DNA of 64,000 bases, taken from NCBI GenBank assembly GCA_020341815.1, contig CP070837.1:892064-956063 (forward strand), read 5' to 3'. The notes beneath the pieces are model-generated. The model saw only the letters and a list, made by a program, of their open reading frames with translations. It did not search any database and was not told where the DNA came from. Shown here piece after piece: positions 40,361-61,140 of this stretch. The DNA is from Candidatus Omnitrophota bacterium. GTDB lineage: Bacteria > Omnitrophota > Gorgyraeia > JAFGHF01. The position numbers and the translations under genes were made by a program. The stretch's first letter is position 1; each line of letters begins with the position of its first letter.

Positions 40361-40879
40361 CTAATTCCTCAAAGTAACCTGGAAATTCAGACTTGATTGT
40401 ATGGTCCGGCCCTGAAGAATATCCTTTTGGGCAGTAATATCTATTCTTATTTCCGAGGCAGAGACAGCGGTAAAGGAAAGCGCGCTGACATTATTAGTCA
40501 AAGCCCGTTCAAGATTTACCTGTTCGACATCGGCTCCATCAAAAACTTCCCTCAAGACCTCTCCATTACTCAACGAGTATTTAATATACCAGCCTGCGTT
40601 ACCTTCGGCCCCCCAGTCAGGATTGTCATTGATAGCAACCTGCAAGGTAAGGCTACCGTCTGGAGCAATGTTCACTTGGCTAGAGCCGGATCGGCGCAAC
40701 TCCCTGCTCATCCAATCCATCGCCCTTCTTACCTCCTGCTGCAGTTCAACTTCGGCCGTGTTCGTAAACCAGGACTGTCTGCCTGCGGTTAAAACTCCAT
40801 ATATTGCCCCCAAGACAACCGCGAAAGTGAATATGACAACCATCACTTCTACTAAGGTTAACCCCGCCCTTCTTTTCAT
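40361..40879 (-). CDS. Minor (pseudo)pilin with a prepilin-type N-terminal cleavage/methylation motif
   Basis: MKRRAG|LTLVEVMVV. Start relocated to the ATG inside the repeat element, with a good RBS. Confidence 0.7.
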   Translation of the reverse strand: MKRRAGLTLVEVMVVIFTFAVVLGAIYGVLTAGRQSWFTNTAEVELQQEVRRAMDWMSRELRRSGSSQVNIAPDGSLTLQVAINDNPDWGAEGNAGWYIKYSLSNGEVLREVFDGADVEQVNLERALTNNVSALSFTAVSASEIRIDITAQKDILQGRTIQSSLNFQVTLRN

Positions 40880-40930
40880 TACCTTCACCCTTAACTCTTG
40901 TGTAAGGCCTGGTTTTAAGAAGGGCGGGGT
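40861..40930. repeat. CCCCGCCCTTC...GAAGGGCGGGG hairpin element, copy A (embeds the RBS and start of minor pilin 1)
   Basis: One of four copies. Spacer subfamily shared with copy B. Confidence 0.7.
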
Positions 40931-40953
40931 AAATCCTTTTGAAAAATAGCTTC

Positions 40954-41493
40954 TCACCGCTCTGTCACCAATGTGGTTATCTGGGCCGGAGAGCTCAAAA
41001 CTCCATCATTGTTATCGTCCTCGCCGGCATCTAATATGCCGTCTAAATCGGTATCTTCGCCGATTTGACGGCCGCCTTTCTGAAACCAGGTAACTACAAT
41101 CCTCACCTGATAAATATCGGCATCGGGGGGCGCACCGAAGGGCGAAATGAACATTGCCCCGGCGCCATTAAGCGGAGAATCCAAAACTCCATTACCGTTA
41201 TCATCCTCACCGGCATCCAATACACCGTCTAAATCATCGTCTTCTCCGGCGGGATCAAAGAGATTAGGGGAGCCATTGACGAAAAAGTCATTAGCAATCA
41301 TATCAAAATCATCATAATTGCGAATTACCTCCAGCTGCTCCTGGGCTCCATACATGGCAATGGTGAGATTTCTTGAGGTCTCATTCAAGTTAGCGCAACC
41401 GATAAATACCCCTAAAAGACCCAGGAGCACCGCGACCAAGAGCGCCACCGCAACCATAAGTTCAACCAGGGTAAACCCCGCCCTTCTTTTCAC
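40954..41493 (-). CDS. Minor pilin with an Asp-rich DxDxDG calcium-binding-like repeat region
   Basis: (V/M)KRRAG|FTLVELMVAV. Four D-x-D-(L)-D-G-(I/V)-L-D-A-G-E-D-D-N-x-(D/N)-G-V-L repeats. Putative GTG start inside the repeat element. Confidence 0.65.
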   Translation of the reverse strand: MKRRAGFTLVELMVAVALLVAVLLGLLGVFIGCANLNETSRNLTIAMYGAQEQLEVIRNYDDFDMIANDFFVNGSPNLFDPAGEDDDLDGVLDAGEDDNGNGVLDSPLNGAGAMFISPFGAPPDADIYQVRIVVTWFQKGGRQIGEDTDLDGILDAGEDDNNDGVLSSPAQITTLVTER

Positions 41494-41544
41494 TGCCTTC
41501 GCCCTTATCTCTCGCACAAGGCCTGATTTTAGGAAGGGCGGGGT
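41475..41544. repeat. CCCCGCCCTTC...GAAGGGCGGGG hairpin element, copy B (embeds the RBS and start of minor pilin 2)
   Basis: See copy A. Confidence 0.7.
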
Positions 41545-41558
41545 AAATGCGCCTTTTT

Positions 41559-42569
41559 TCACTTATTGCTTACCCCTCTTAAAGCCAGACCGCAACCTAC
41601 CGCCAGCGTCGGAGAAACCTCATTCAACTTGGCGCTGTCGATGCCTGTAGAGTTGCCAAGCAATTTCTCCAGAGGATTCCATGTCTTAATCTCTCTGCCT
41701 AACTCGGCTTTAAAGAACTCAAGCAACCCAGGGATTTGAGCCCCTTCGCCGCTAATATAAACTACGCCTACCTGTCTTTCGAATTCACTTTCATAATAAT
41801 CAATAGAAACCCTTATCTCGCGAATTAGATTTGTCAAAAGCGGCTTTATCGTCTCAAAAAGCCCTTTTTCTTTGTTTTCCTCCTGCTGCTGCTGTTGTTG
41901 TAACAGTAGGAAATCTTCCAAGACAGAGAGGTCGCGGCTAAAAAATGGCATCTCTCCCTGAAGGATGCCTATATTCACCAAATCGAATTCCAGATTAATC
42001 AGGGCCGCCACATCCTCTTCTTTTAGCTGTGGGCCATTTACCTGAAAACAGTTTATTAAAGAAAAGATATTTACGTCGATAATATTGGGCTCAAGCCCGG
42101 CCTCGTGAATAAGCTCGACGAACTCCATTATTGCCTGCTTTTTAGCGGCCACCAGGAAAACTTTCATCCTATTGGAAGAACTCGCCACCCGAGGCGTAAG
42201 GATATGGTAATCCAGAACCACCTCTTCCATCTTAAAAGGGATATATTGTTGTGCTTCGTATGCCAGGGCCTGCCCGAGTTCCTCTCGACTCATCTTGGGT
42301 AAATTGATATACCTGACGATAACCGATTCACCCGAAACACCGATATTTACGGGATGAGCGGAAATCCCTTTTTCCTGGGCAATCTTTTTCAATGCCTCAA
42401 GCTTTTCTTCTCTGTTCTGTGGGGATTTAAGCGCAACACTGGCAAAATCAACAAGCTTAGGCCCGCCGGCAGAAGCGGTTAATTTCACCATATTGATTCG
42501 CCGCTTGCCTATATCTAACCCTATAGAAATAGCGGCCTTTCTCTTGAATATCAGATCTATCGCTTTCAA
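41559..42569 (-). CDS. pilM: Type IV pilus assembly protein PilM (actin-like ATPase fold)
   Basis: ISIGLDIGKRRINMVKL start motif and an FtsA/actin-like fold. Confidence 0.85.
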   Translation of the reverse strand: MKAIDLIFKRKAAISIGLDIGKRRINMVKLTASAGGPKLVDFASVALKSPQNREEKLEALKKIAQEKGISAHPVNIGVSGESVIVRYINLPKMSREELGQALAYEAQQYIPFKMEEVVLDYHILTPRVASSSNRMKVFLVAAKKQAIMEFVELIHEAGLEPNIIDVNIFSLINCFQVNGPQLKEEDVAALINLEFDLVNIGILQGEMPFFSRDLSVLEDFLLLQQQQQQEENKEKGLFETIKPLLTNLIREIRVSIDYYESEFERQVGVVYISGEGAQIPGLLEFFKAELGREIKTWNPLEKLLGNSTGIDSAKLNEVSPTLAVGCGLALRGVSNK

Positions 42570-42594
42570 ATTTACTTATCCTTACTTATTTTAG

Positions 42595-42623
42595 AATATA
42601 GCATAAAATAATTACTCTGTCAA
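42595..42623 (-). promoter_or_regulatory. Sigma70-like promoter (TTGACA, 17 nt spacer, TATATT) upstream of pilM
   Basis: Consensus -35 and near-consensus -10 with optimal spacing. Confidence 0.5.
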
Positions 42624-42674
42624 CACCTTTTGCTATCTTTCCTTTGCGGGCTTCTGAAGATGAATAAGGATTTT

Positions 42675-43157
42675 TCAATATGGTGCGGGCGGGCTGCTTG
42701 CGTCAGGTTCCTCTGCGTTGGTAGCGGTATAAGTGAGCTGGCCCGTTTCCATTATAAAGAAATTCTTGGCCCCCGTGCGGCCAAAAGAGCTTGGCCAGGC
42801 AACTATGGTAAAAGACTCATTGTCTGCTCCCAGCGTGTAAACATAATAATACCCCTGCATCGCCGTATTGGCTGTGATGGCATTGGCTAAGGGAATGGAA
42901 ATAAAAGGCGGGTCGGAGATGGGCAAGGTCAAATCGGTTAAGGCATTCGGATAGGTATGCGGAATGTTGGCACCATAATATCCCAGGCAGGCCTTATAAA
43001 GCGTGCGCATATTGCCGACTGCGGCCACTTCATTGGCATTTACTCTTGAACGAGCCATCTGAGGAATGGTGATAGTAGCTAAAAGCGCAATCAAGGCAGC
43101 TATTATCATTATCTCGACTAAAGTAAAGCCCCTATGTCTAGTTATAAATATTTTCAT
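42675..43157 (-). CDS. Type IV major-pilin-like protein, paralog of PilA
   Basis: MKIFITRHRG|FTLVEIMIIAALIALLA, and ...IPQMARSRVNANE parallels PilA. Confidence 0.8.
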   Translation of the reverse strand: MKIFITRHRGFTLVEIMIIAALIALLATITIPQMARSRVNANEVAAVGNMRTLYKACLGYYGANIPHTYPNALTDLTLPISDPPFISIPLANAITANTAMQGYYYVYTLGADNESFTIVAWPSSFGRTGAKNFFIMETGQLTYTATNAEEPDASSPPAPY

Positions 43158-43202
43158 TAAGCTACTCCCCCTATCCTTTTCCCCTTATTTTATTATCTTA
43201 TT

Positions 43203-43235
43203 ATAATATAATACACGAAATTTTTCAAACGTCAA
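43203..43235 (-). promoter_or_regulatory. Promoter-like region (TTGACG...TATATT/TATAAT) for the second major-pilin paralog
   Basis: By-eye match. Spacing is ambiguous. Confidence 0.35.
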
Positions 43236-43295
43236 GAAAAATCTGCTCGCGGAAGAAGCTAACCTATTATGCCGACGAGGAATGTCCTGTAGAAA

Positions 43296-43331
43296 TAAAA
43301 AAGCCCTGTACCGTACGGTACAGGGCTTTTT
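43296..43331 (-). terminator. Strong bidirectional Rho-independent terminator after pilA
   Basis: AAAAAAGCCCTGTACCGTACGGTACAGGGCTTTTTC. Perfect 12 bp stem with A-run and T-run flanks. Confidence 0.85.
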
Positions 43332-43360
43332 CAACAATCTCTGATTGTCTCGTATCCGCC

Positions 43361-43921
43361 TTATTCGGCTACCACCCAACCTGCGGCTATCAGCGCTGCA
43401 GCGCCATAGGCACCTGCAGGCACATCAAGTGTATCCAGACCATAGACTACGCCTTGTTCGTCAATATAAAAACAGCGTACGCCTGAGGTCTGGTATGCAA
43501 GCGGAGTAGCATCTATCCAGAACCGCTCAATTATAGCGTCACCGTCTGAGTCCTGAGGGTTGTAGGTAAAATCATAACCCGACCTTCTCGGTGGGTTATT
43601 AGGACCTGCAATCTCACTCCACTGCAACTCAAGATACGGCGGCTCAGGGGGAGCAATCGAATTTGAAGTCAAGGCATCAAACCCGGCTCCGGCTGCTCCT
43701 GCTGCACCCGGATAGGTAGGTACGCCCTGAGTGATATTAGCTCCGGCAAATGAATTGAGACCAGCACAAAGGGTCTTCAAAGTATTTACCGTAGCGTTCT
43801 CATTGGCGTTAAGCCTGGCTCTGAGCAAGTTCGGGATAGCAATCGCGGCTAATAAAGCTATGATAGCAACGACAATCATGATTTCTACTAACGTAAAGCC
43901 TTTGCGATTTAGCTTAGACAT
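43361..43921 (-). CDS. pilA: Type IV major pilin PilA
   Basis: MSKLNRKG|FTLVEIMIVVAIIALLAAIAIPNLLRAR. Own terminator. Confidence 0.85.
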   Translation of the reverse strand: MSKLNRKGFTLVEIMIVVAIIALLAAIAIPNLLRARLNANENATVNTLKTLCAGLNSFAGANITQGVPTYPGAAGAAGAGFDALTSNSIAPPEPPYLELQWSEIAGPNNPPRRSGYDFTYNPQDSDGDAIIERFWIDATPLAYQTSGVRCFYIDEQGVVYGLDTLDVPAGAYGAAALIAAGWVVAE

Positions 43922-44040
43922 CCTCGTTTACCTCCTTCCTTCCCAAATGGGTTACACTGGATGCCGCCTTCTCGAGAATTTGACGCCAAAAGCCTATTTA
44001 TTATAACCCGCATCTCGTTCACGCCCTACGGCAACTCAGC

Positions 44041-44066
44041 GTAGAAGGACACACCCGTCCTTCTAC
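44041..44066 (-). promoter_or_regulatory. Perfect 10 bp stem hairpin in the pilC-pilA intergenic / pilA leader
   Basis: GTAGAAGGAC-acaccc-GTCCTTCTAC. No U-tract, so it is not a canonical terminator. Confidence 0.3.
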
Positions 44067-44143
44067 CATAGAGTGTATCACCCAATATTTCCTCTGTCAA
44101 GGACTTTTTAAGGTCGTGATCTATTATATAATTATATAATATA

Positions 44144-45337
44144 TTATAACAACCTGCTAATCGTAAGGATAGGCAGAAACATCGCCGCCACAATACCCCC
44201 TACCACTACGCCTAAAAACACAATAACTATCGGCTCGATCAGGGAGGTTAAGCTGCTAACGGCAGTATCTACCTGCTCTTCGTAAAACTCGGAAATCTTG
44301 GTCAACATCTTCTCCAATTCCCCTGTCTGCTCACCCACCCCGATCATCCGGGTAACCATCGGCGGAAAGACCCCGCTTCTGGCTAAGGGCTCGGCGATAT
44401 TTTCTCCCTCACGGATATTTGTACGCACCGCATTCACCGCCGTCTCAATCACCTTATTTCCTGATGTCCTGGCGGTAATCTCCAAAGCATTGAGAATGGG
44501 CACCCCGCTCCTGACCAGCGTGGATAAGGTGCGGGAAAACCGGGCAATAGCTACTTTTCGCAAAAGGATACCGACGACGGGTAGCCGCAACATTGTCTTA
44601 TCCAGCTGTATCCGCGCCTTTTCAGTGCGAATAATTCTTGAAAGAAGGAAGCCGAAGAAAAACAGACCTCCGAAAAGAACAGGCGCACTGCGTCGGGCGA
44701 AATTACTAACGGCGATCAGTGCCTGCGTAATCTTAGGCAACTCTCCCCCTAAGGTGTCAAATATTCCTTTAAACGTGGGCACTACTTTAAAAATCAAGAT
44801 ACCGGTAATAAGCGCTGCCATTGAAACAACCAGAGCCGGATAAATAAAGCTTGACTTTACCTTATGCACAAGCGCGCTGCTTTTCTCTAAATAGCTGGCT
44901 AATCTCTCCAGGATATCGTCGAGCGTTCCACTGGACTCACCAGCCCTGACCATATGCACAAAAAGTTCGGAAAAGATTTGCGGATGGTGCGACAAGGCCT
45001 CGGACAGGCTGCTGCCTGTCTCTATATTATCTCTCAAACTGGCAATCACTGCCCGAAAATCGGGCTTTTGAATTTGCTCAACCAAAACATCCAGAGCCTG
45101 AACCAAGGGGATACCGCTATCCACCATTGTAGCCAACTGCCGGGAAAAAATCACCAAATCATCTATCTTTACCTTTGCCTTGGAGGCCAGCTTCAAGGTT
45201 TTTGTCTCTGTCACCGAAATAACAATCAGGCCCTTTTTGCGCAGCAAATCAATCAGGGTAGCCTGATCTTTACATTGCAGGGTGGCGATAATGGTTCTTG
45301 CTCGCTGGTCTTTGGCTACATATTTGAAATTCGGCAT
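44144..45337 (-). CDS. pilC: Type IV pilus inner-membrane platform protein PilC (GspF family)
   Basis: Full-length GspF/PilC. Confidence 0.9.
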   Translation of the reverse strand: MPNFKYVAKDQRARTIIATLQCKDQATLIDLLRKKGLIVISVTETKTLKLASKAKVKIDDLVIFSRQLATMVDSGIPLVQALDVLVEQIQKPDFRAVIASLRDNIETGSSLSEALSHHPQIFSELFVHMVRAGESSGTLDDILERLASYLEKSSALVHKVKSSFIYPALVVSMAALITGILIFKVVPTFKGIFDTLGGELPKITQALIAVSNFARRSAPVLFGGLFFFGFLLSRIIRTEKARIQLDKTMLRLPVVGILLRKVAIARFSRTLSTLVRSGVPILNALEITARTSGNKVIETAVNAVRTNIREGENIAEPLARSGVFPPMVTRMIGVGEQTGELEKMLTKISEFYEEQVDTAVSSLTSLIEPIVIVFLGVVVGGIVAAMFLPILTISRLL

Positions 45338-45357
45338 TTTTTCAGCCCCCCTAAAAA

Positions 45358-47055
45358 TTACTCATCGGCAGTCATTCGCAATACCTCTTCCAGGGTTGTC
45401 TCACCCCGAATGAATTTCTCTAATCCGTTCTCACGCAGAACCTTCATCCCCTGTCTACGGGCATAATCTTTAATCTGGTTACTGGGGGCACCTTTGATGA
45501 TCATTTCACGAAGCTTATCGTCCATAACCAGGACTTCCAATGTACCCATACGGCCGTAATAACCCGTCTGATTACACCTGGCGCATCCCTTTCCGTGATA
45601 GAATTTACTATCCTTTGCCACTTTCACTCCCAGCTTATCCAGCGTTGCCCGGGGTACATCGACAGGCTCTTTGCAATTCGGACATATGCGCCGGCAGAGC
45701 CGCTGTGCGGCTATCAGAATTACCGATGAGGCAATCAAAAAAGGCTCCACCCCCATATCGATTAAGCGGGTAACTGCCGAGGCGGCATCATTTGTATGTA
45801 ATGTACTTAAGACCAGCTCCCCCGTTAAGGCGGCTTTCACGGCAATATCCGCAGTTTCTCCATCGCGAATCTCCCCCACCATAATCACGTCCGGGCTCTG
45901 TCTCAAAAGTGCGCGCAGACCATTGGCAAAGGTAAGGCCGATTTCCGGCTTGGTCTGGATTTGGGTAACCCTCTCCACCTGGTATTCCACGGGGTCCTCT
46001 ATGGTAATGATATTCTTATCTGTAGTATTCAATTGGCTGAGGACCGAATAAAGGGTGGTTGATTTCCCGCAACCCGTAGGCCCAGTCAAAAGAATCATTC
46101 CGTATGGCTTGGCAATAGCATCCTTAAAAGCCTCAAGAGAAGCGGGCAGAAATCCCAAATTATCAAGCCCCAGAGATAAATTTGACTTATCCAGCGCCCT
46201 TAAAACACATTTGCCGCCAAAGCTTGTGGGTAAAAATGAGACACGAAAATCGATTTCTTTCTGGCCCATGCTAACCTTAAAGCGGCCGTCCTGAGGAAGG
46301 CGCTTCTGGGTAATATCCAGATTGGACATAATTTTCAGCCTGGTAATAAGGGCATTTTGCAGCTTTTTGGGTAGAGCATAAAACTCATGTAAAATGCCAT
46401 CGATGCGGTAACGAATACGCAGCCTGTCCTCAAAGGGTTCAAGATGAATATCGCTGGCCCGGCTCTTCAAGGCCTCATTGATAATTACATCTACCAATTT
46501 TATAATCGGGGCCTCTTTACCATCTTTGGTCATCTCAGCCAAATCGGCAATATTCAATCCCGCTACGGTTTTTTTTCGCTCTTTCTTTACTATGTCGGCC
46601 ATCTCCTCCATGCCCGGCGCATAATACCTCTCGATAGCCTGGAGAATATCATCGGCGGTGGTAACCATAGTCTGCACTTCCGATTTGGTCAATGCCTTAA
46701 CATCATCCAGGGCAAAGATATTTAAGGGGTCACTCATTGCCACGCTGACTACATTTTTAATCTTAGAAACAGGTATCACCAGATAATGGCGCGCTACGCG
46801 TTCGGGAATAAGCTTAACCACCGCAGGATCTATTTTGTACCTGGAGAGATTTATCGGAGGGATGCCCAATTGCGCGCCCAGACAAACCATCAAGTCCTTC
46901 TGGGATACCATCTTTTGCTCAATCAAGATTTTGCTTAGACTGCCTCCTTCTTCCTTCTGAATCTTTAAGGCCTTCTTGAGATCTTTCTCGCTAAGCAGGT
47001 TATTCTTCAGAAGCACTTCATTAATTTTCTTCTTTAGAGCAATTAGCTTGGGCAT
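45358..47055 (-). CDS. pilB: Type IV pilus assembly ATPase PilB (GspE family, N-terminal MshEN domain)
   Basis: Walker A GPTGCGKSTT, Asp/His boxes, tetracysteine. N-terminal LxxxxLxxxxLxxALxxQ repeats. Confidence 0.9.
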   Translation of the reverse strand: MPKLIALKKKINEVLLKNNLLSEKDLKKALKIQKEEGGSLSKILIEQKMVSQKDLMVCLGAQLGIPPINLSRYKIDPAVVKLIPERVARHYLVIPVSKIKNVVSVAMSDPLNIFALDDVKALTKSEVQTMVTTADDILQAIERYYAPGMEEMADIVKKERKKTVAGLNIADLAEMTKDGKEAPIIKLVDVIINEALKSRASDIHLEPFEDRLRIRYRIDGILHEFYALPKKLQNALITRLKIMSNLDITQKRLPQDGRFKVSMGQKEIDFRVSFLPTSFGGKCVLRALDKSNLSLGLDNLGFLPASLEAFKDAIAKPYGMILLTGPTGCGKSTTLYSVLSQLNTTDKNIITIEDPVEYQVERVTQIQTKPEIGLTFANGLRALLRQSPDVIMVGEIRDGETADIAVKAALTGELVLSTLHTNDAASAVTRLIDMGVEPFLIASSVILIAAQRLCRRICPNCKEPVDVPRATLDKLGVKVAKDSKFYHGKGCARCNQTGYYGRMGTLEVLVMDDKLREMIIKGAPSNQIKDYARRQGMKVLRENGLEKFIRGETTLEEVLRMTADE

Positions 47056-47072
47056 CTTTAAACCTCTCCTCT

Positions 47073-48794
47073 TTAAGATAATTTCTCATCCGGCACAGTA
47101 ACCCTGAGCACCTCTTCTAAAGAGGTCTCACCCCTGATTACTTTGGCCAGGCCGTTTTCCCGCAATGTGGTCATTCCTTCCCGGCGAGCGGCGTTCTTTA
47201 TCTGTACCTCAGGCGCCTTTTGAGCAATCAAGTCCTTTATCTTAGGCGTTATTCTTAAGATTTCCATAATCGCTATGCGGCCTTTGTAGCCTGTGTTATT
47301 ACACTTAGGGCAACCCTTGGGGCGATAGAACGTCAATTCTTTATTATCCTTTAAATTCAACTTTTCTTTTAAGGCCGGCGAGACTTTATAGGCCTCTTTG
47401 CAGTCGGGACAGAGAAGCCTTACCAGCCTTTGCGCCCCAACCATAAGGACTGAGGCGGTAATCAAAAAAGGCTCTACCCCCATATTGGCCAGGCGCACCA
47501 AAGAACCGGCGGCATCGGTGGTGTGCAAGGTACTTAACACCAGGTGCCCCGTGAGCGCTGATTTGATGGCGATATCTACTGTATCGTAATCACGAATCTC
47601 TCCTATCATAATTACATCGGGATCCTGACGTAAGATTGAACGTAAAGCATTGGCAAAAGTCAACCCAATTTCCGGAAGAGCAGTTACCTGATTTATACCG
47701 TCCAGCTGATATTCGATGGGGTCTTCTACGGTTACCAAATTCTTTTCTATGGAATCCACGCGCTTAAGGATAGAATATAACGTGGTGGTTTTGCCGCATC
47801 CGGTCGGACCGCAAATCAATATCATTCCATGCGGACGAAGGGTACATTCTTTTAATACCTTAAGCGGCGTCTCTTCGAAGCCGAGTTTTTCCAGATCAAG
47901 GAGCAACGTGCTTTTATCCAGAATACGTAAGGCAAGCTTCTCTCCAAAGCTGGAGGGAAGCACCGAAACGCGAAAATCCACTTCTTGTTTTCTGGCTGAG
48001 CCGTATTTAAATCTTCCGTCTTGAGGCAACCTGTGTTCGGCCACATTAAGCCTGGACATTACCTTTATTCTGGTAACAATGGCCTCATGCATACTCTTTG
48101 GCGGAGCCTGGCCCATCTGGAGAACCCCATCCACGCGGTAACGCACCTGCATAATCTTCTCTAAGGGTTCAATGAGAATATCGCTCGCCCGGCGTTTAAT
48201 TCCTTCCTCTAAAATCATATTGGTTATCTTTACCAGAGGAGCCCCTTTAACCAGCTCCATAAGGCTTTCTGTATCCAATTCCTCTTCTTTCTTCTTGGAA
48301 GGCTCTGTTACTACTGCGGTCCTGCGCTCAATTGCATCTTTGATGATTTCCTGGGCATCTGCGGAATAATATCGGCGAATAGCCTCTTTGATATCTACCT
48401 CGGTACTAAGGACGGTTTTGACTTTATATTTGGTAAGGGCGCGAATATCGTCCAGGGCCACGATATTTAAAGGGTCACTTACAGCAACAGTTAGGTTATC
48501 CCCAATCCTGGAGACCGGAATCAACTGATAATGCTGGGCTACCTGCTGAGGGATAAGCTTTATTACTTCCGGCTTAATCTTTAATTTTTCCAGGTTTACG
48601 GGCGGAATGTGCAAACTTTTACTTAGCGCTATCATCAAATCCCTCTCATCCACCAGGTTTAGGGACACCAAAATACTGCTTAGCCTTCCCCCTTTTTGCT
48701 TTTGAATATCCAATGCCTTATCCAACTCATCAGGAGTAAGGAGCTTATTTTCCGTAAGAATATTAACCAACTGTTCTTTAAGTGACTTAGCCAT
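47073..48794 (-). CDS. Second PilB/GspE-family ATPase paralog (N-terminal MshEN domain)
   Basis: Same motif set (GPTGCGKTTT, CPKC). About 50% identity by eye to the adjacent PilB. Confidence 0.85.
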   Translation of the reverse strand: MAKSLKEQLVNILTENKLLTPDELDKALDIQKQKGGRLSSILVSLNLVDERDLMIALSKSLHIPPVNLEKLKIKPEVIKLIPQQVAQHYQLIPVSRIGDNLTVAVSDPLNIVALDDIRALTKYKVKTVLSTEVDIKEAIRRYYSADAQEIIKDAIERRTAVVTEPSKKKEEELDTESLMELVKGAPLVKITNMILEEGIKRRASDILIEPLEKIMQVRYRVDGVLQMGQAPPKSMHEAIVTRIKVMSRLNVAEHRLPQDGRFKYGSARKQEVDFRVSVLPSSFGEKLALRILDKSTLLLDLEKLGFEETPLKVLKECTLRPHGMILICGPTGCGKTTTLYSILKRVDSIEKNLVTVEDPIEYQLDGINQVTALPEIGLTFANALRSILRQDPDVIMIGEIRDYDTVDIAIKSALTGHLVLSTLHTTDAAGSLVRLANMGVEPFLITASVLMVGAQRLVRLLCPDCKEAYKVSPALKEKLNLKDNKELTFYRPKGCPKCNNTGYKGRIAIMEILRITPKIKDLIAQKAPEVQIKNAARREGMTTLRENGLAKVIRGETSLEEVLRVTVPDEKLS

Positions 48795-48798
48795 TTTA

Positions 48799-49263: not shown

Positions 49264-49267
49264 CTTA

Positions 49268-52117: not shown

Positions 52118-52200
52118 CGTCTGGCAACCCAGCCATCCCTAACTCTAAGGACCTGTTGGCTTTGCGCCCCCCGACTTTCGCCGGGGTTTGCCTTTTTCAA
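52118..52200 (-). ncRNA. c-di-GMP-I (GEMM) riboswitch aptamer, copy 2
   Basis: Minus-sense GGCAAACC-CCGGC-GAAA-GUCGGGG-GGCGCAAAGCC-...-GGGUUGCC. P1 closing GGCAA/UUGCC and P2 with GNRA loop match GEMM-I. Confidence 0.7.
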
Positions 52201-52228
52201 ACGTATTTTGTTACTTTGTACAACCAGA

Positions 52229-53382: not shown

Positions 53383-55084
53383 TCTGTTTGGCCATCACGG
53401 CCGGTACATCTCCCCCGCTTCCCCCGTATTCCAAAAATACCAGCACCGAAATACGCGGCTCGTCAAAGGGGTAAAAGGCTCCGAACCATCCGTGGGCAGG
53501 ACGAGACTCCAGGGCTTGGGCGGTTCCGGTTTTGGCTGCCCACTCGACTCCGGCAATCCTCGCCCTGTGGCCCGTTCCCCGTTCATCGCCAATAACCCGG
53601 CGCATACCTTCTTTAATTATCTCTAAGGTCTCTTCCTTTAAACCTATCTTTTTCCGCGAAACAGCAGCTTCTTCCTCCCCTATCCTTTTTACTATATGCG
53701 GCCGCACAAGGTAACCTCCGTTTGCTACCGCAGAAATCAATTGCGTAATCTGTAAAGGAGTAACCAAAAGATATCCCTGCCCGATAGAAAAATTGGCCGT
53801 CTCTCCATCATACCATTTTTCCTTCTTGACTTTATACTTCCAGCTCTTGGAAGGAACAAGCCCTGTTGACTCATATGGCAAATCTACGCCTGTAGCAGAG
53901 CCTAATCCGAATCTGCGGGCAAAAGAGGATATTTTATCCGGGCCAACGGCCAATCCTAATCTATAAAAGAAGACGTTGCAGGAATGGCAAAGCGCAGAGT
54001 GTATATCTTCATTTCCGTGGCCGTCAAGATTCCAGCAGAAAAATTCGCGCCTGCCCACTTTAAAGCAACCTGGACAGTTAAACTTTTCATCAATAGTAAT
54101 CTTGCCTGTTTCCAATGCTGCTGCGGCTACCACAATCTTAAAGATTGAACCGGGAGGGTAAGTCCCTGAGATAGCTCGATTAACTAAAGGCGCCTCTTTG
54201 GAAGTAAGCAGCTCACTTATCTGTCTGCCGGCCTTAAGGTTTCCATTAAGGGCTGTAATAAACATATTGGGATCGAAATCGGGCTTGCTCACCATGGATA
54301 AAATTTCGCCACGCTCTACATCCATCACGATACAGACGCCTTTTTTTTCCTCCAGGAGACCTTCAACATACCTCTGCAGGTCTGCGTCAATGGTCAAATA
54401 AAGCTTCTCACCCGAAAGAGGCTCCCGCAGGCCCAGAACCTTGACCAGATGACCCCGGCTATCTACTTCTACCTGCTTCCCGCCCCTTTCGCCTCTTAAA
54501 TAAGCATCGAAGGCCTCCTCCACACCACTTCTGCCCACCAAGTCCTCAATCCCTCCCAAACCATATGTCTTAACTCTTTTCAATTCCTCTTCTCTGAGTC
54601 TGCCTAAATATCCAAGAATATGAGAGAAGCTCCTCCGGCTCCGATAATCCCTGAGAGACTCGGTGCGAACAACCAGTCCCGGAATGTCCGATTCCCTGCA
54701 TTCCAAGACAACAGCCTTTTCTTTAGGAATATCGCAGGCAAGGACTACCGGAATAAAGGGGGCGGAAAAGTTTCTCTTAAATTGGCGTAAGAGTCTCTGT
54801 TCGGAGATGTTTAAGATAGGGCTTAAAGCTTTGATGCTCTTTTCGATATTTCTGGTTTCCTGGGGAAGCACAGCCGCATTGAAAATAAGCCTGCGCCCGG
54901 CCAGAATCTTTCCCTTGCGGTCATAAATCTCACCGCGCGCAGCACTCAGCTTAACGAGCTTAATTCTATTATTCTGGCTTAATCTAAAATAGTAAGATTC
55001 TTTGATGAGCTGGTTATAGGCGCAAGCCGCACACAAGAGAAGGAAAAAGATAAAAATTATTTTTTTTAATAACTGGGCGCGCAT
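53354..55084 (-). CDS. mrdA: Penicillin-binding protein 2
   Basis: Transpeptidase SxxK, SxN and KTG motifs. Signal anchor. Confidence 0.9.
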   Translation of the reverse strand: MRAQLLKKIIFIFFLLLCAACAYNQLIKESYYFRLSQNNRIKLVKLSAARGEIYDRKGKILAGRRLIFNAAVLPQETRNIEKSIKALSPILNISEQRLLRQFKRNFSAPFIPVVLACDIPKEKAVVLECRESDIPGLVVRTESLRDYRSRRSFSHILGYLGRLREEELKRVKTYGLGGIEDLVGRSGVEEAFDAYLRGERGGKQVEVDSRGHLVKVLGLREPLSGEKLYLTIDADLQRYVEGLLEEKKGVCIVMDVERGEILSMVSKPDFDPNMFITALNGNLKAGRQISELLTSKEAPLVNRAISGTYPPGSIFKIVVAAAALETGKITIDEKFNCPGCFKVGRREFFCWNLDGHGNEDIHSALCHSCNVFFYRLGLAVGPDKISSFARRFGLGSATGVDLPYESTGLVPSKSWKYKVKKEKWYDGETANFSIGQGYLLVTPLQITQLISAVANGGYLVRPHIVKRIGEEEAAVSRKKIGLKEETLEIIKEGMRRVIGDERGTGHRARIAGVEWAAKTGTAQALESRPAHGWFGAFYPFDEPRISVLVFLEYGGSGGDVPAVMAKQIVDFYAQLQ

Positions 55085-55090
55085 AATGGC

Positions 55091-55576
55091 TTATTGTATA
55101 TAAAAAACCGTTTTCAAAAAATAAAATAAAACAGGTGAAACGGCTGCAGTATAAAAAGAGGCGGGTAAAATGACGGATATCAAACTGTTAAATATAGATA
55201 GATTTGCGCCGGAGGCCTGCAAAAGAAAAAATAGAAAAAAATAAATTACAAAACTAAAAATAAAAGATATGCTCATCTGGCCTAAGGCCCGCAGGCCTAA
55301 AACCCATCTGCCAAGCTGACCTAAGATGAACCCCCCGAAAGAATAGAGAAATACTACCGCAGCCGTAGGCACCGCAGACGTTGCTTCGCTGAAAAGCCCG
55401 CAAAGGGCCCCTACCACCAGGCCATAAATCCGGCCGTAATAGAAACTGAAAAAAATTACCAAAAGAAGCAGGATGTCAGGTTTGATTCTGAAAATCCGGA
55501 TATAATTAAGCAATGTAGCCTGCAAAACTGCAAATAAAATAACCAAAGAGAGAATTAATAGCTTGTTTGGCTTCAC
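55091..55576 (-). CDS. mreD: Rod shape-determining protein MreD
   Basis: Polytopic small membrane protein downstream of mreC. GTG start. Confidence 0.7.
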   Translation of the reverse strand: MKPNKLLILSLVILFAVLQATLLNYIRIFRIKPDILLLLVIFFSFYYGRIYGLVVGALCGLFSEATSAVPTAAVVFLYSFGGFILGQLGRWVLGLRALGQMSISFIFSFVIYFFLFFLLQASGANLSIFNSLISVILPASFYTAAVSPVLFYFLKTVFYIQ

Positions 55577-55646
55577 CCCGCCCTTCCTTTTCTATTACCC
55601 TCGCCCATATCTCTTATGCAAAGCTTAGTGTCTGGAAGGGCGGGGT
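55575..55646. repeat. CCCCGCCCTTC...GAAGGGCGGGG hairpin element, copy C (between mreC stop and mreD start)
   Basis: See copy A. Spacer subfamily shared with copy D. Confidence 0.7.
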
Positions 55647-56447
55647 TCATTGGTTGGTGATAATCATGAGCTCTTCTAAACTTGAGAAGTCAACTGCCGG
55701 GGTAATCTCGGCTATTTTATAGAGCTCGTCTTTATCCTCTTCCACGGCAGAAACTTTTCCAATCGAAAGACCCTTGGGATAAATTTCGCCCAGGCCTGAT
55801 GAAATAATTTCATCGCCTATCTCTACTGTGCCTTGAAGGTATTTCATCTTGCAAATCGCGCGGCCACCTTCGACAGTTCCAAAGACTATACCTTCTTCGC
55901 GGCTGCGTAAAATTTTAGCAGGAATCTTGGAATTACAATCGACAATCAAGGCAACCTTGCTGACGAAAGGATGGGCCTCGATGACTCTACCTGCTAAATT
56001 TGCTCCCAAGACCGCAGGCATACCTCTTTTTATGCCGCTCGATGTTCCTTTATTAATTATGGCAACCTGGGTCCAGTTGGAAGAATCCTTACCGATTAAA
56101 AGAGCTGCCTCTGCATCGTAAAGCTCCTGTTGCGGCAGAGATAAAAGAGCCCTCAGGCGCTGATTTTCCAAGTGCGCCTCCTCTAATCGACGCAACTCTA
56201 CCTTCAACAAATCAAGTTCGACGTTAAGTCTTTTATTTTCTCCGGATAGATCCTGGAATTTCAGGAATTGTCTGGCGCTGGCAGATACGCCTTCGCAAAG
56301 CCTCAAAGGCGGTAAGATGAGAGACGCTACTGCAGGTTTTATATATTTAGAAAGGGAGATGTAGAGAGTTAAAGAAAGGAATATTCCTCCTGATAAAACA
56401 AGAGTTTGAATAGTGGGCTTTAAATTTTTGAACCACCCTAGCCTCAC
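55647..56447 (-). CDS. mreC: Rod shape-determining protein MreC
   Basis: Coiled-coil plus beta domain typical of MreC. Confidence 0.85.
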
Positions 56448-57520
56448 GACTCTACCTTTGTGGGAACAAGGAGCTTCTTGAGGTAATGTATCTCGTCCAA
56501 GACTTTCCCTGTTCCCAAGGCCACAGAAGTTATAGGGTCTTCGGTCACATGAACAGGAAGCCCCGTCTCCTCAGAAAGCAATTTATCGATACCGCGCAGA
56601 AGCGAACCGCCCCCGGCCATGACTATTCCCCGCTCAATCAAATCCGCGGAAAGTTCAGGCGGAGTTCTCTCCAGGGCAACCCGGGCCGCCTCCACAATGG
56701 CATTAATGGGAGTGGATAAGGCCTCTCTTACTTCTTCGGAAGAAATACTGATTAATTTGGGAAGTCCCGCTACCAGGTCCCGGCCCCTGACTTCCATGGT
56801 CAGCTCTTCATCCAAAGGAAATGCCGAGCCGATTTTTATTTTTATTTCTTCTGCGGTTCTTTCTCCAACCATAAGGTTGTAGGTCTTCTTCAGATGTTCG
56901 ATAATGGCCTCATCCATCTCGTCGCCGCCAATCCTGATGCATTTGGCATAGACGATACCGGCCAAAGAAATCACCGCCATCTCCGTTGTGCCGCCGCCGA
57001 TATCGACAATCATATTACCCGCCGGCTCCTGAATAGGCATACCCACGCCTACCGCAGCGGCAATAGGCTCTTCCACCAAAAACACTTCACGCGCACCGGC
57101 GTGCTCTGCGGAATCTTTTACTGCGCGCTTCTCCACTTCCGTAATCCCCGAAGGAACGGCAATAATCATTCGCGGGCGCACAAGGACTCGTCGGTGATGG
57201 ACCTTTTTTATAAAGTAACGCAACATATTTTCCGTAATTTCGAAATCGGCTATCACGCCGTCTTTCATCGGCCGGATGGCTACGATACTGCCCGGTGTGC
57301 GTCCCAGCATTCTCTTGGCCTCCTCCCCTACCGCCAAGACACGGGAAGAGCCTTTTTGTATAGCTACTACCGAAGGTTCGCAAAGCACGATACCTTCGTC
57401 TTTAACAAAAACTAAAGTTGAAGCCGTACCCAAGTCAATGCCCATATCATTAGAAAACAACCCCATTAAATAATTTACTCCCTTAACCAGTTGTTTCCAT
57501 ATCTTTAATAAAATGTTCAT
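56444..57520 (-). CDS. mreB: Rod shape-determining protein MreB
   Basis: Canonical MreB. Confidence 0.95.
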
Positions 57521-57612
57521 TGCCTTTTCACTCCTTGAGTTTGGGTTTTGCTTATTCTATCAAACCTAAGGTCTATTGTCAAGTTAAGGATTTAATATTG
57601 AGTAAAAAATTA

Positions 57613-58917
57613 TTACAGCTTTGAAAGCTCTTCAAAGAAGTTGGGATATGAAGTAAAAACACAATCCGTATTTTTGATGGTCGTGCGACCAGAGGCGCAA
57701 AGAGCGGCAACAGCCATACACATAGCCGTGCGATGGTCGCCGAAACTTTCGACAATACTGCCGCTCAGTTTCGAAGGACCGCGGATAATTATATCATTGC
57801 CGCGACTTTCAATATCCGCTTTCATCCTGGTTAAATTAGAAATCATGGAATTAATTCTATCTGTCTCTTTAACTCTCAATTCATCTGCGCCGGCAATTAT
57901 ACTCTCGCCTTCCGCCTGCGTTGCCGCTACCATTAGAATAGGAAGTTCATCGATAAGGGAAGGAATTTCATCGGAACCGATAGTAAAAGCCTTGAGAGAG
58001 CTATACTTTGCCGTTATCTCTCCCTTTAATTCCTGGCTATAATCGCCGGAGGCGGCCTTATCATTTTCATAATTCCAGCGGATAGAGGCCCCCATTTTTT
58101 GCAATACATTTAAAAAAGCTGTGCGCGTGGGATTAAGGCCTACCGATTTTATCGAGACTCTTGAGCCTTTAGAAATGCAGGCTGCTACCAGAAAAAAACT
58201 TGCGCCAGAGGCGTCCCCCGGGATGTCTACGTCTTTAGCGATTAAATCGGCCCTGCCACTTACGGAAACCGAAAGCCCCTCCGGAGAAATATCCGCGCCG
58301 AATTTTTTCAGCATCCTCTCCGTATGGTCTCTGGATTTGGCGGACTCGATTACTTTTGTAATACCCTCGGCATAAAGGCCGGCTAAAAGGATAGCGGATT
58401 TTACCTGCGCGCTGGCTATGGGCATTTCATAAGAAATCGGTTTTAATGTTCGTCCCCGCACGGTCAAAGGGGCAAACTCATTCCCTTGGCGGCCTTTAAT
58501 TTCTGCTCCCATTAAGGACAACGGCTCAATTACCCTTTTCATCGGCCTCTTGGAAAGCGAGGCATCTCCTTCCAGTTCACTGCTAAATCGCTGAGCTGCC
58601 AGGATTCCCAACAAAAGGCGCATAGAAGTGCCGGAGTTACCCAAGTAAAGCTTACCCTTGGGTTTATGCAGACCAATTAATCCTCTTCCTTCGATATAAG
58701 AAAACTCTCCCGACTTAGTTACGGCAATGCCCATATTTTTAAAGGCATCTATGGTGCGCAGGCAGTCTTCGCAACTGGAGAGATTTTTTATTTGTGTCTT
58801 GCCGGAGGCAATAGATGCAATAATAACTGCCCGGTGGGAAATAGATTTGTCGGCAGGAGGCGTAATTTGACCGGATATTTTTTTGGCTTCAATGGTAATA
58901 TTGGACATTTTTTTCAC
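57613..58917 (-). CDS. aroA: 3-phosphoshikimate 1-carboxyvinyltransferase (EPSP synthase)
   Basis: Full-length AroA. Confidence 0.95.
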   Translation of the reverse strand: MKKMSNITIEAKKISGQITPPADKSISHRAVIIASIASGKTQIKNLSSCEDCLRTIDAFKNMGIAVTKSGEFSYIEGRGLIGLHKPKGKLYLGNSGTSMRLLLGILAAQRFSSELEGDASLSKRPMKRVIEPLSLMGAEIKGRQGNEFAPLTVRGRTLKPISYEMPIASAQVKSAILLAGLYAEGITKVIESAKSRDHTERMLKKFGADISPEGLSVSVSGRADLIAKDVDIPGDASGASFFLVAACISKGSRVSIKSVGLNPTRTAFLNVLQKMGASIRWNYENDKAASGDYSQELKGEITAKYSSLKAFTIGSDEIPSLIDELPILMVAATQAEGESIIAGADELRVKETDRINSMISNLTRMKADIESRGNDIIIRGPSKLSGSIVESFGDHRTAMCMAVAALCASGRTTIKNTDCVFTSYPNFFEELSKL

Positions 58918-59834
58918 TTATGAGAGCAGTATAACATAAAATTCTCGGGAACGCCAGATTGAAATTCAACAAATTTCCCTGTGCGAGGATGCTGAAAACC
59001 CAATACCTTTGCATGTAGCGCCAGGCGTTCGAAGTCGCCTCCTCTGCCATAGCGGGTATCTCCCAGAATTGGGTGGCCGTGAAATTTCAAATGAACCCTT
59101 AACTGATGCGTGCGGCCGGTGTGCGGGATAAGCTCAAGCAAGGTTGCACTTTTAAGCCTTTTTAGAACTTTATATCTGGTTAAGGCCGGGCGGCTTTTTT
59201 TATGAAAGCTTACCGCCATCTTCTGGCGATGGTGGGGGTCCCTGGCGATAGGCATCTCTATCTGCCCTTCATCATGGGCAACCTTTCCTTTGACCAGGGC
59301 TATATATTTGCGCCTAACAGTATGGCTGCGAAACTGCTTGGCCAGGCCCAAATGAGCAAAATCGTTTTTGGCAATAACCAAAAGCCCTGTTGTATCTTTA
59401 TCCAGGCGATGCACTATCCCCGGCCTTAAAGGGCCGTTGACCGTAGAAAGCGGACATCCGTAATGCAATAAGGCATTTACTAAAGTCCCGGAATAACACC
59501 CTGCGGCCGGATGCGTAACCATACCCGAAGGCTTATTTATTACCAGGATATCCTCATCCTCAAAGACGATATCCAGCGGTATCTCCTCAGGTGAAACTTG
59601 CATGCTGGGCTGAACCGGAGGAATATTGACGCGCAGCGCGTCATTTTCTCTAACCTTATAATGGGCCTTGGCGGGCTTTTCGTTTACGAAAACCATTCCC
59701 GTCTTTATCAGCCGCTGGATTCGCGAACGGGAGATAGGAAGTTCCAGGTTTTTGATTATAAAGTGGTCCAGCCTTAACCCCTTATCTGCGCTGCTTACTT
59801 TGAAAGTAACCTCTTGCATATTTGCACCAGGCAC
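58914..59834 (-). CDS. rluD: RluA-family 23S rRNA pseudouridine synthase (RluD-like, S4 domain)
   Basis: HRLDKDTTG motif and N-terminal S4. Confidence 0.85.
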   Translation of the reverse strand: MPGANMQEVTFKVSSADKGLRLDHFIIKNLELPISRSRIQRLIKTGMVFVNEKPAKAHYKVRENDALRVNIPPVQPSMQVSPEEIPLDIVFEDEDILVINKPSGMVTHPAAGCYSGTLVNALLHYGCPLSTVNGPLRPGIVHRLDKDTTGLLVIAKNDFAHLGLAKQFRSHTVRRKYIALVKGKVAHDEGQIEMPIARDPHHRQKMAVSFHKKSRPALTRYKVLKRLKSATLLELIPHTGRTHQLRVHLKFHGHPILGDTRYGRGGDFERLALHAKVLGFQHPRTGKFVEFQSGVPENFMLYCSHK

Positions 59835-59846
59835 GTAAAGACGCCT

Positions 59847-60641
59847 TCAGCGTCCACGTGCCAGTCTCGTGATGCGAAGCATTTTACGAGACCAGATTAA
59901 AGATGAGACTATAAAAATTACTGCGCTAATCAATTGATGCAGAGTCAAATTTGCCCATAACGGCAAATTATCACCGCGTAAATATTCCATAAAAAATCGC
60001 GATACGCTATAAAGCAGGCAGTATAAAAGAAAGACCTCGCCCGGAAAATATGCCTTTTCCTTTTTTCTCTTCGCCTGAAACATTCTTAAAATAACAAAAA
60101 TTACCAACAGATTAAACGAAGCATAAAGCTGCACGGGATGACGGCCTATATTTTCTGCGGGCCTTCCGTAACAGCAGCCGTTTAGAAAACAGCCAATTCT
60201 GCCGATTGCCTGAGCCAGGGCCAGATAAGGACAAACTATATCGAATATCTTTATGACGGAAAGTCTTTGCCTCTTCAAAAAAATGACTGCGGAAATTGTC
60301 GCCAGGATGAGCCCGCCATAAAAACTTAAGCCCCCTCTCTGAAGCATAAATATGGCGCCGGGATATTCAATATAAAACTTTAGATTCTGCAATACATAAA
60401 GCGCTCGCGCCCCTAATATTGCCGAAATCGCCAGCACCAAAGAAAGGTTTACTATTACATCGGGCTCCACATCTTGCCTTGCTGCCTCAAGGCGCGCTAA
60501 ATATGCGCCGAGGATAAAGGCAACGGCCACCATAAAGCCGTAGGAATATATTTTAAGAGGGCCTATTTCGAAAAGGATAGGGTGCATAGCTAACTTAATG
60601 TTTATGTTTGAGTATGTGTAATACCAATAAGGCCGTGCCAA
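59847..60641 (-). CDS. lgt: Prolipoprotein diacylglyceryl transferase
   Basis: Lgt signature (GRIGCFLNGCCYG). Confidence 0.9.
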   Translation of the reverse strand: MARPYWYYTYSNINIKLAMHPILFEIGPLKIYSYGFMVAVAFILGAYLARLEAARQDVEPDVIVNLSLVLAISAILGARALYVLQNLKFYIEYPGAIFMLQRGGLSFYGGLILATISAVIFLKRQRLSVIKIFDIVCPYLALAQAIGRIGCFLNGCCYGRPAENIGRHPVQLYASFNLLVIFVILRMFQAKRKKEKAYFPGEVFLLYCLLYSVSRFFMEYLRGDNLPLWANLTLHQLISAVIFIVSSLIWSRKMLRITRLARGR

Positions 60642-61065
60642 TGGTAATAGCGCTATCGGCTATATTAAAAACCGGCCAGATACGAAAATCCAGAAAATCG
60701 ATTACGAAACCAAAACGTATCCGGTCAATCAGATTACCCACTGCCCCGGCCAAAATCAGGGATAGAAAAATCTGCCTCAACTGCCGGGGGCCTTTAGCCG
60801 TCCCTTTGCCAAAAAACTCCTTATAGAAAAAAAGGGTAAAGGCAATTATTACAATGGAGACGTAGATAATCCATGCAAAGGAAGATCTTGAGTTTCCAGA
60901 GAACAGACCGAAGGCCAAGCCCTTGTTGCAGACAAGGCTGATATGAAAAATATTCTTGATTACGGGGAAAGATTGAAAAGGCTGGAAGTTCTTAAGGATA
61001 ATAAACTTGCTTAGCTGATCAAGAATTAATATCCCAAAGAAAAAGGAAACGGCCCTTTTCTTCAT
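60595..61065 (-). CDS. lspA: Lipoprotein signal peptidase II
   Basis: Canonical LspA (NIADSAITIG). Confidence 0.9.
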   Translation of the reverse strand: MKKRAVSFFFGILILDQLSKFIILKNFQPFQSFPVIKNIFHISLVCNKGLAFGLFSGNSRSSFAWIIYVSIVIIAFTLFFYKEFFGKGTAKGPRQLRQIFLSLILAGAVGNLIDRIRFGFVIDFLDFRIWPVFNIADSAITIGTALLVLHILKHKH

Positions 61066-61071
61066 AAATTT

Positions 61072-61140
61072 ACCCCGCCCTTCTTTTTATTGCCTCCGCC
61101 CATATCTATTTATACAAAGCAGGTATTAGGAAGGGCGGGG
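61072..61140. repeat. CCCCGCCCTTC...GAAGGGCGGGG hairpin element, copy D (between dksA-like stop and lspA start)
   Basis: See copy A. Confidence 0.7.

Follow-up and report, generated by a model that had tools for sequence, protein, structure and literature searches.

A hairpin element at four gene starts

The stretch of DNA analysed here (the window; 64,000 nt from a Candidatus Omnitrophota bacterium, contig CP070837.1, positions 892,064 to 956,063) carries four copies of a short hairpin element, two within the leader codons of minor pilin genes, one at the mreC/mreD junction and one between dksA and lspA. All four, like the genes that flank them, read in sense on the minus strand. The copies and the genes around them are given below in window coordinates; 5' and 3' are used throughout in the gene-sense direction, and labels such as L052 denote loci collected for comparison.

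40361-40957, minus strand: minor pilin 2, with an overlap between the pilin 1 stop and its original GTG start (40957)
40862-40929, minus strand: element copy, 68 nt, in frame in the leader codons of minor pilin 2; site empty in L052
40954-41562, minus strand: minor pilin 1, with an overlap (GTGA) between the pilM stop and its original GTG start (41562)
41476-41543, minus strand: element copy, 68 nt, in frame in the leader codons of minor pilin 1; L052 has the unoccupied sequence ggcgcaTTCAccctggttgaa
55091-55576, minus strand: mreD (PF04093 on orthologues)
55576-55645, minus strand: canonical element copy, 70 nt, at the mreC/mreD junction; site empty in L053-L057
55647-56447, minus strand: mreC
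60595-61065, minus strand: lspA (Peptidase_A8)
61073-61140, minus strand: element copy, 68 nt, between the dksA stop and the lspA start
61141-61551, minus strand: dksA/traR-type zinc-finger gene

These copies had been picked out earlier from the letters of the window alone (the sequence-only reading); they are real, and our coordinates agree with the earlier ones to within 1 nt. Each copy has perfect arms of 11-13 nt, and the arms CCCCGCCCTTC / GAAGGGCGGGG are exact in 4/4. The exact arm 10-mer occurs eight times in the 64-kb window, always within the four copies, and a scan allowing 2 mismatches per 12-nt arm found no further paired copy in the window. A profile hidden Markov model (HMM) built from copies in other genomes matches exactly these four, scoring 29-45 bits in gene-sense orientation versus 15-19 bits in antisense, with the best match (44.7 bits) at mreC/mreD. 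The arms, which the sequence-only reading expected to pair, do so in every minimum-free-energy fold of the window copies (-31 to -39 kcal/mol; z-scores -2.0 to -5.9).

Some details of that reading required correction. It placed three upstream stop codons directly against a 5' arm, whereas only two, the mreC TGA and the dksA TAG, lie there; the pilM and pilin 1 stop codons are 18 and 27 nt upstream of their respective 5' arms. Start codons were said to follow the element by 0-6 nt; the mreD GTG begins on the last base of the 3' arm, and the lspA ATG (61065-61063) lies 7 nt past it. The proposed division of the spacers into a pilin/pilin and an mreD/lspA subfamily is weak, loop identity being 78% between the two pilin copies and 71% between the mreD and lspA copies, as compared with 65-70% for the cross pairs.

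At the gathering threshold, Rfam 15 left the element unmatched and reported just two cyclic di-GMP-I (c-di-GMP-I) riboswitches elsewhere in the whole window, and a permissive Rfam scan of 40800-41600, which spans the pilin copies, returned a single sub-threshold match to the snoR110 hairpin. The element is outside the known curated Rfam cis-regulatory RNA families. An intrinsic terminator role was excluded from the sequence, a T-run being absent after the 3' arm in both orientations.

Family distribution and anatomy

Copies elsewhere were collected by scanning one GTDB genome per species for exact arms 38-60 nt apart, which gave 50 loci. About 23 of these, from roughly a dozen metagenome-assembled genomes labelled Omnitrophota or Omnitrophica, share the AT-rich loop architecture of the window copies, and the remaining loci are GC-rich hairpins of unrelated organisms. 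Metagenomes scanned for the arms yielded at least 120 loci, and viral contigs yielded 0 matches. Perfect arms bound the four window copies and over 100 copies from other sources, and the HMM has 159 matches in 1.2 Mb of collected loci. Family statistics below refer to 103 non-redundant copies from Omnitrophota genomes and metagenomes, among the matches listed.

The element is bounded by invariant terminal inverted repeats (TIRs), CCCCGCCCTTC(C) and (G)GAAGGGCGGGG. Read on the purine-rich strand, the consensus is A-TGAA / CCCCGCCCTTCC TAAA, a variable AT-rich loop, and AGAAAGGAAGGGCGGGG / TGAA, with element ends overall of the form CCCCGCCCTTCC...GGAAGGGCGGGG. The loop often includes an imperfect additional copy of the 3' arm, and a purine-rich stretch (A)GAAAGGAAGG lies ~8 nt upstream of the GTG that the insertion creates. 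Lengths are 54-84 nt among the 103 copies and reach 107-118 nt in others. Subterminal motifs differ by genome: MHFI01 copies carry GAGATTGG, the window copies GAAAAGA and most others AGAAAGG. The two copies in L019 are near-identical, whereas the copy at the orthologous site in L098 differs, which suggests spread within genomes or gene conversion. Among copies gathered without arm selection, both compensated arm changes (C..G to T..A; TTCC/GGAA to TTTC/GAAA) and uncompensated ones (GAAGAGCGGGG) occur, a mixture that decides nothing.

The only open reading frame (ORF) in the element is a mini-ORF of 20-40 codons dictated by the TIRs. A conserved protein-coding reading of the element was excluded: values of length + 4 are spread over all three mod-3 classes, and loop conservation is poor.

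Several variants were seen in the collected loci. The 3'-arm variant GGAAGAGCGGGG accompanies an unchanged 5' arm, leaving an A-C mismatch, at L061 4222-4295, L096 1732-1804, L155 4558-4616 and L056 4329-4438; recurring in several unrelated contigs, it may mark a subfamily with imperfect TIRs. L010 5208-5233 is a minimal 26-nt version with little beyond both arms (CCCCGCTCTTGCGCGCAAGGGCGGGG) and TGAA on each side. A different palindromic repeat with the same core arms occurs in metagenome loci L094, L107, L114-L116, L143 and L176; its two ends read CCCC and its inverted flanks are extended (GGCGGGGCT-AAAG ... CTTT-AGGCCCGCC). It has no start-codon association and is presumably a REP-like (repetitive extragenic palindromic) family of other organisms.

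Target-site duplications and empty sites

The four bases on either side of the element are identical in 75/103 copies and match at ≥3 of 4 positions in 85/103. The 5' flank is TGAA in 63/103 and TGAG in 14/103. These flanks are direct rather than inverted repeats, and they co-vary across copies (TGAA/TGAA, TGAG/TGAG, TGCG/TGCG, TTTA/TTTA, TAAA/TAAA, TTAA/TTAA); the copies found by nhmmer, for which perfect arms were not a condition of selection, have the same flanks. The window copies are flanked as follows.

40930-40933, minus strand: 5' flank TTTA of the pilin 2 copy; the empty target in the relative is TTGA
40858-40861, minus strand: 3' flank TTAA of the pilin 2 copy
41544-41547, minus strand: 5' target-site duplication TTTA of the pilin 1 copy
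41472-41475, minus strand: 3' target-site duplication TTTA of the pilin 1 copy
55646-55649, minus strand: 5' target-site duplication TGAA of the mreD copy, including the mreC stop TGA
55572-55575, minus strand: 3' target-site duplication TGAA of the mreD copy
61141-61144, minus strand: 5' flank TTAG of the lspA copy, a diverged TTAA target that includes the dksA stop TAG; empty site GCCTC-TTAA-TTTATG
61069-61072, minus strand: 3' flank TAAA of the lspA copy, likewise a diverged TTAA target

A close relative supplies the unoccupied state of each site. Contigs L052 and L053 of sample SRR24270831 align collinearly with the window, nucleotide identity being 92-93% (about 92.5%), and the blastn alignments are interrupted exactly at the elements: all four sites are empty in this relative, with a single 4-mer at each. 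At pilin 1, L052 reads ggcgca-TTCA-ccctggttgaa and the window ggcgca-TTTA[68 nt]TTTA-ccctggttgaa; at pilin 2 the empty aagggaTTGAccttagta of L052 corresponds to aaaggaTTTA[68 nt]TTAAccttagta. The mreC/mreD site, CCAACCAA-TGAA-GCCAAAC in L053-L057, is CCAACCAA-TGAA[70 nt]TGAA-GCCAAAC in the window, and the dksA/lspA site, GCCTC-TTAA-TTTATGAAG in L053 and L054, is GCCTC-TTAG[68 nt]TAAA-TTTATGAAG. Read from the aligned sequences, the data show the four window copies to have arrived after the split from the ~92.5%-identity relative. At mreC/mreD the more diverged relatives L054-L057 (MreD identity 75% and 68%) have the same empty ATGA overlap, so the insertion there is confined to the lineage of the window.

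Occupied junctions also differ between species. In the mreBCD-PBP2-rodA operon of L016 the occupied junction is PBP2/rodA and mreC/mreD is free, the reverse of the window. The target of the lspA copy is the TTAA at the dksA stop codon, and at this same TTAA L056 carries a 107-nt relative of the element with target-site duplication TTAA/TTAA.

Since the 4-bp duplications vary and co-vary, integration by a staggered cut (DDE-type) is suggested, and they point to a candidate staggered-cut, DDE-type transposase as the mobilising enzyme. The T/A-rich (TTAA-like) 4-bp duplications and termini CC(C)...(G)GG recall IS1380 and piggyBac-like transposons, a resemblance that is not evidence of membership.

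Tandem copies share a single TGAA between them (L033, L039, L040). At L033 3101-3218, L039 3130-3310 and L040 476-593, two or three elements stand in a row at a single gene start, each parted from the next by exactly one TGAA or TGAG; these arrays would represent either repeated insertion into one tetranucleotide or circle-junction-like dimers.

Near the mre genes, the 75%-identity relatives have four additional genes inserted between mreB and the EPSP-synthase gene (L054 5197-7916 versus window ~57520-57613); these four, an NTP_transf_2/HEPN pair and two of unknown function, are absent from the window.

Position on start codons

In 83/103 copies the last base of the element and the next two flank bases form the start codon of an ORF of ≥70 codons or one running off the contig, as compared with 1/103 for the control (the opposite end on the other strand). 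These spanning starts are GTG in 79 copies and ATG in 4, the ATG copies having a terminal base pair T..A. The base preceding the 5' TGAA flank is A in 84/103, so the upstream flank is taken to be part of the old ATGAA start, and a Shine-Dalgarno (SD)-like 4-mer lies ≤20 nt upstream of the flank in 40/79 copies with A or G before TG..

A rough baseline was taken from the window, in which TGAA/TTCA occurs at 36 intergenic sites and ~15 start codons read (A/G)TGAA. If insertion were random and subject to no filter other than gene integrity, ~29% of copies would be expected at start sites on this baseline; 81% was observed. The link to the ribosome-binding site and start codon that the sequence-only reading drew from four copies is real, and stronger across the family than in the window alone. 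The link to membrane proteins, which it also pointed out, is coincidental, the downstream genes elsewhere being unrelated housekeeping genes (among them, by N-terminal sequence, ackA (acetate kinase), nusG, rodA, rpsF (S6), purQ, purN, pdxJ, purA, yidC and argJ).

A reading frame through the hairpin

The mreC/mreD copy illustrates what a canonical insertion does to a start codon. The A at 55650 forms the old mreD start codon ATG with the 5' TGAA, the present mreD GTG start begins on the copy's final base (G at 55576), and the boundaries of the copy read ATGA ... GTGA. A mini-ORF connects the two starts.

55573-55650, minus strand: relay mini-ORF, 25 codons, from the old ATG (overlapping the mreC TGA) to the TGA overlapping the new mreD GTG

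A canonical insertion leaves the old ATG where it was, together with its Shine-Dalgarno sequence or the overlapping TGA of the upstream gene, and an ORF now opens there with ATG AAC CCC GCC CTT CC. (MNPALP...). The mini-ORF typically reads MNPALPK...GRAG; it crosses the hairpin and closes on a TGA that shares bases with the new GTG. In 47/80 canonical non-redundant copies (chi-square p = 7e-6) the old ATG and the new start are offset by 2 mod 3, the class in which the old-ATG frame ends at GTGA, and in 35/80 the mini-ORF terminates exactly at the GTGA overlap. Freedom from stop codons was assessed on the variable loop only, because the TGA of ATGAA and the TAA of CCTAAA close the other two frames. 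The loop is stop-free in the GTGA-ending frame in 53/80 copies, versus 15 and 19 in the other frames and ~23 in shuffles. Collapsing similar loops preserved this difference, with 46 stop-free versus 13 and 17 among 71 clusters at 80% identity and 19 versus 6 and 9 among 31 clusters at 70% identity.

In-frame copies in coding sequence

The pilin copies lie within genes. Their target is TT(T/C/G)A in Phe/Leu-Thr codons at the prepilin cleavage site, and each insertion adds 68 + 4 = 72 nt, or 24 codons, in frame and stop-free. The sequence-only reading had treated an apparent extended FTPPFLK leader as an artefact of the nucleotide repeat. The view is half right: the element does encode that stretch, but the upstream part of the ORF (MKKGAF.. 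/ MRSYFSKGF..) is the true ancestral N-terminus, joined in frame through the 72-nt insertion, as judged from the pilin 2 orthologue P0002, which begins MRNYFPKGLTLVEVM and does not have the 24 extra residues.

Translation from the original GTG codons would give long leaders, MKKGAFTPPFLK...VKRRAG / FTLVELM in pilin 1 and MRSYFSKGFTPPFLK...MKRRAG / LTLVEVM in pilin 2. Short leaders arise from GTG/ATG codons internal to the element: GTG at 41493 in pilin 1, whose leader ends ..KRRAG / FTLVELM from either start, and ATG at 40879 in pilin 2, which is the NCBI-annotated start (P0001, 172 aa). The mature pilin is predicted to be the ancestral one whichever start is used, released at a new KRRAG / F/L cleavage site, and the insertions would be tolerated because this predicted product is unchanged.

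A further intragenic copy was seen outside the window: a 107-nt relative at L056 5824-5930 lies in frame in the S4-domain region of an rluD-type pseudouridine synthase gene. Its target-site duplication is TAAA, and with the duplication it adds 111 nt, or 37 codons, with no stop.

Other features of the window

The two c-di-GMP-I riboswitch aptamers lie at 15912-16088 (minus strand, 69.8 bits) and 52120-52202 (minus strand, 59.7 bits). The former has a 93-nt insertion in its second hairpin and is upstream of a CobA/BtuR-type adenosyltransferase gene (15231-15740); the latter is upstream of a 114-aa ORF and a gene with HAMP-GAF-GGDEF orthologues, at the head of the pilus ATPase cluster. A 432-aa ORF at 911-2209 (plus strand, opposite to most window genes) has LAGLIDADG_3 and a resolvase-type helix-turn-helix and may be a free-standing homing-endonuclease-like gene. 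The gene at 3535-8886 (minus strand) encodes a 1783-aa protein, probably a large one of the cell surface; its domains are beta-helix, PKD and several of the bacterial Ig-like type, Big_7 and Big_13 among them.

Interpretation and alternatives

We interpret the element as a small non-autonomous mobile element (54-118 nt) of the MITE type (a miniature transposable element with inverted repeats), specific to Omnitrophota and equipped with a built-in translational relay, and assign this interpretation a probability of about 0.75. The suggestion of a MITE/REP-like element with target preference, one of two offered by the sequence-only reading, is strongly supported by the TIRs, the 4-bp duplications, the empty sites and the many Omnitrophota copies.

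The course of an insertion is as follows, the part played by ribosomes being proposed. The preferred landing site across the family is TGAA within ATGAA at a start codon, with a 4-bp duplication. The upstream TGAA retains the old ATG and any overlapping TGA stop, and the last G of the element together with the downstream TGAA supplies a new GTG AA. start in the original frame. Ribosomes starting at the old ATG, or coupled from the upstream gene, would translate the mini-ORF and melt the hairpin; they would terminate at GTGA and then re-initiate on the gene, aided by the AAGGAAGG stretch ~8 nt upstream. Such translation through the hairpin and re-initiation would bring the cost to the host near zero, even in essential genes of a 94%-coding genome.

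Several observations weigh against this interpretation. Insertion, as opposed to precise excision, is fixed by an outgroup at the mreD site only. Some orthologous junctions are filled in several diverged genomes, with perfect arms and diverged loops; a hot spot that was hit again, gene conversion, or selection for the hairpin at the level of the host could account for them. A source element did not come to light: arm pairs at the spacing of an insertion sequence (IS; 150-5000 bp, matching 4-mers) in 1.2 Mb of loci were only neighbouring small copies at successive gene starts, and Pfam found no transposase domain in 19 ORFs (window positions 1-36700). Perfect-arm copies are few, 1-6 per GTDB representative. 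Most copies were gathered by requiring perfect arms, by which arm conservation, some proportions and possibly the fraction of 'healthy' start codons are subject to ascertainment bias. Selection acting on copies already in place, and not targeting, could produce the excess at start codons, and translation of the mini-ORF and re-initiation after it are steps that we infer from the reading frames.

One alternative is that the hairpin is primarily a host cis-regulatory RNA, an operator or thermosensor that hides the SD sequence and start codon of particular genes, with mobility incidental or ancient. The very stable stems do contain part of the SD sequence and the start codon, the orientation is essentially always gene-sense, perfect arms are kept at orthologous junctions despite diverged loops, and the internal imperfect copy of the 3' arm could pair alternatively. 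Against this, the same junctions are empty in the 92.5%-identical relative and in more distant ones, other junctions of the same operon are occupied in other species, and the downstream genes are functionally unrelated, a pattern that also speaks against the conserved translational operator, offered as one option by the sequence-only reading, as a gene-specific regulator. Target duplications and in-frame intragenic copies likewise count against a host RNA; an Rfam match is absent, and loop length and sequence are unconstrained apart from the reading frame. We consider this explanation unlikely.

We think it similarly improbable that site-specific recombination by way of a circle (integrase- or IS110-type) mobilises the element, with TGAA, shared by donor and target, as the crossover core and the flanks not being staggered-cut duplications. 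The strong preference for one tetranucleotide is as this explanation would have it, and the single TGAA between tandem copies resembles a circle junction (GGGCGGGG-TGAA-CCCCGCCC). Several copies have flanks that differ from each other at one position and also from the empty site (TTTA/TTAA versus TTGA at pilin 2; TTAG/TAAA versus TTAA at lspA), and the same TTAA site was filled independently in the window and in L056. The non-TGAA flanks (TGCG, TTTA, TAAA, TTAA), however, co-vary perfectly, as for a true target duplication, and a recombinase gene was not seen nearby (19 window ORFs by Pfam; arm pairs in 1.2 Mb).

Spread as a REP/REPIN-type extragenic palindrome by a RAYT (REP-associated tyrosine transposase; HUH/Y1) acting on single-stranded hairpins is very improbable: the palindrome is short and GC-rich with a conserved tetranucleotide beside the stem foot, but Y1 transposases insert 3' of a fixed tetranucleotide without target duplication, whereas here the flanking 4-mers vary and co-vary on both sides, which counts against a Y1/RAYT mechanism, and most copies are not extragenic, 83/103 lying on start codons and some inside ORFs.

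A bolder extension of the MITE-type interpretation would have these elements be phylum-wide mini-transposons adapted to start codons, which actively target (A)TGAA, beyond any later filtering by selection, bring their own SD sequence, the G of the GTG and a hairpin-unwinding relay ORF, and colonise essential genes of highly compact genomes. Downstream expression would then hinge on translation of the mini-ORF, and the element would be a portable translational-coupling switch, perhaps co-opted by the host. We regard this as possible and would sooner bet against it than for it.

If the MITE-type interpretation is correct, a selfish element could multiply in a streamlined genome that is 94% coding and leave its genes functional by landing on the start codon and rebuilding the initiation signals, and would provide a statistically supported example of a mobile 'translational relay', suggested earlier chiefly for mycobacterial interspersed repetitive units (MIRUs). 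For annotation, many Omnitrophota GTG starts, N-terminal extensions (pilin FTPPFLK) and small insertions (RluD) would be products of the element. A search target is also defined, namely a transposase with CCCCGCCCTTCC as its recognised ends and a cut in TGAA that is staggered by 4 bp.

Relation to known systems

A literature search found no paper linking Omnitrophica/Omnitrophota to such repeats or to MITEs. Prokaryotic MITEs include Correia/NEMIS, Nezha and Chunjie (reviewed in PMC3184786 and PMC10969869). The element resembles them in its TIRs, its short direct repeats of the target (the target-site duplication), its small size without a transposase gene, its dispersed copies with filled/empty polymorphism and the stable hairpin that it forms when transcribed in operons. 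It differs from MITEs generally in being much smaller (54-118 nt) and in that ~80% of sampled copies lie exactly on a start codon, which they rebuild; in the main text of the 2024 MITE review (PMC10969869) the strings 'start codon', 'ribosom' and 'Shine' do not occur.

Neisseria REP2 and Borrelia IR repeats also bear a ribosome-binding site and start codon, without TIRs (PMC3184786). Unlike the element, Neisseria REP2 has a promoter and lacks TIRs, and target duplications are not reported for it in that review. Rickettsia palindromic elements (RPEs) are mobile palindromes that lie in frame within genes and are translated with the host protein (PMC10969869). The pilin 1, pilin 2 and rluD (L056) copies behave like RPEs, a likeness in behaviour only; RPEs are ~100-150 bp and mostly intragenic, whereas in the Omnitrophota element intragenic in-frame copies are a minority.

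The nearest functional analogue is the MIRU. MIRUs are 40-100 bp, lie between operon genes, and have tetranucleotide direct repeats, filled/empty sites and GC-rich internal inverted repeats (Supply et al. 1997, cited in PMC3184786), and their small ORFs overlap the flanking genes at their ends and form a translational-coupling relay (PMC3184786). The element likewise has a small ORF that overlaps the flanking stop and start (in the mreD copy and in 35/80 canonical copies). MIRUs belong to a different phylum, and the likeness is functional only, with no sequence relationship claimed: they are mainly tandem, in the manner of variable number tandem repeats, and have imperfect TIRs, whereas the element has perfect 11-13-mer TIRs, and its last base supplies the start codon.

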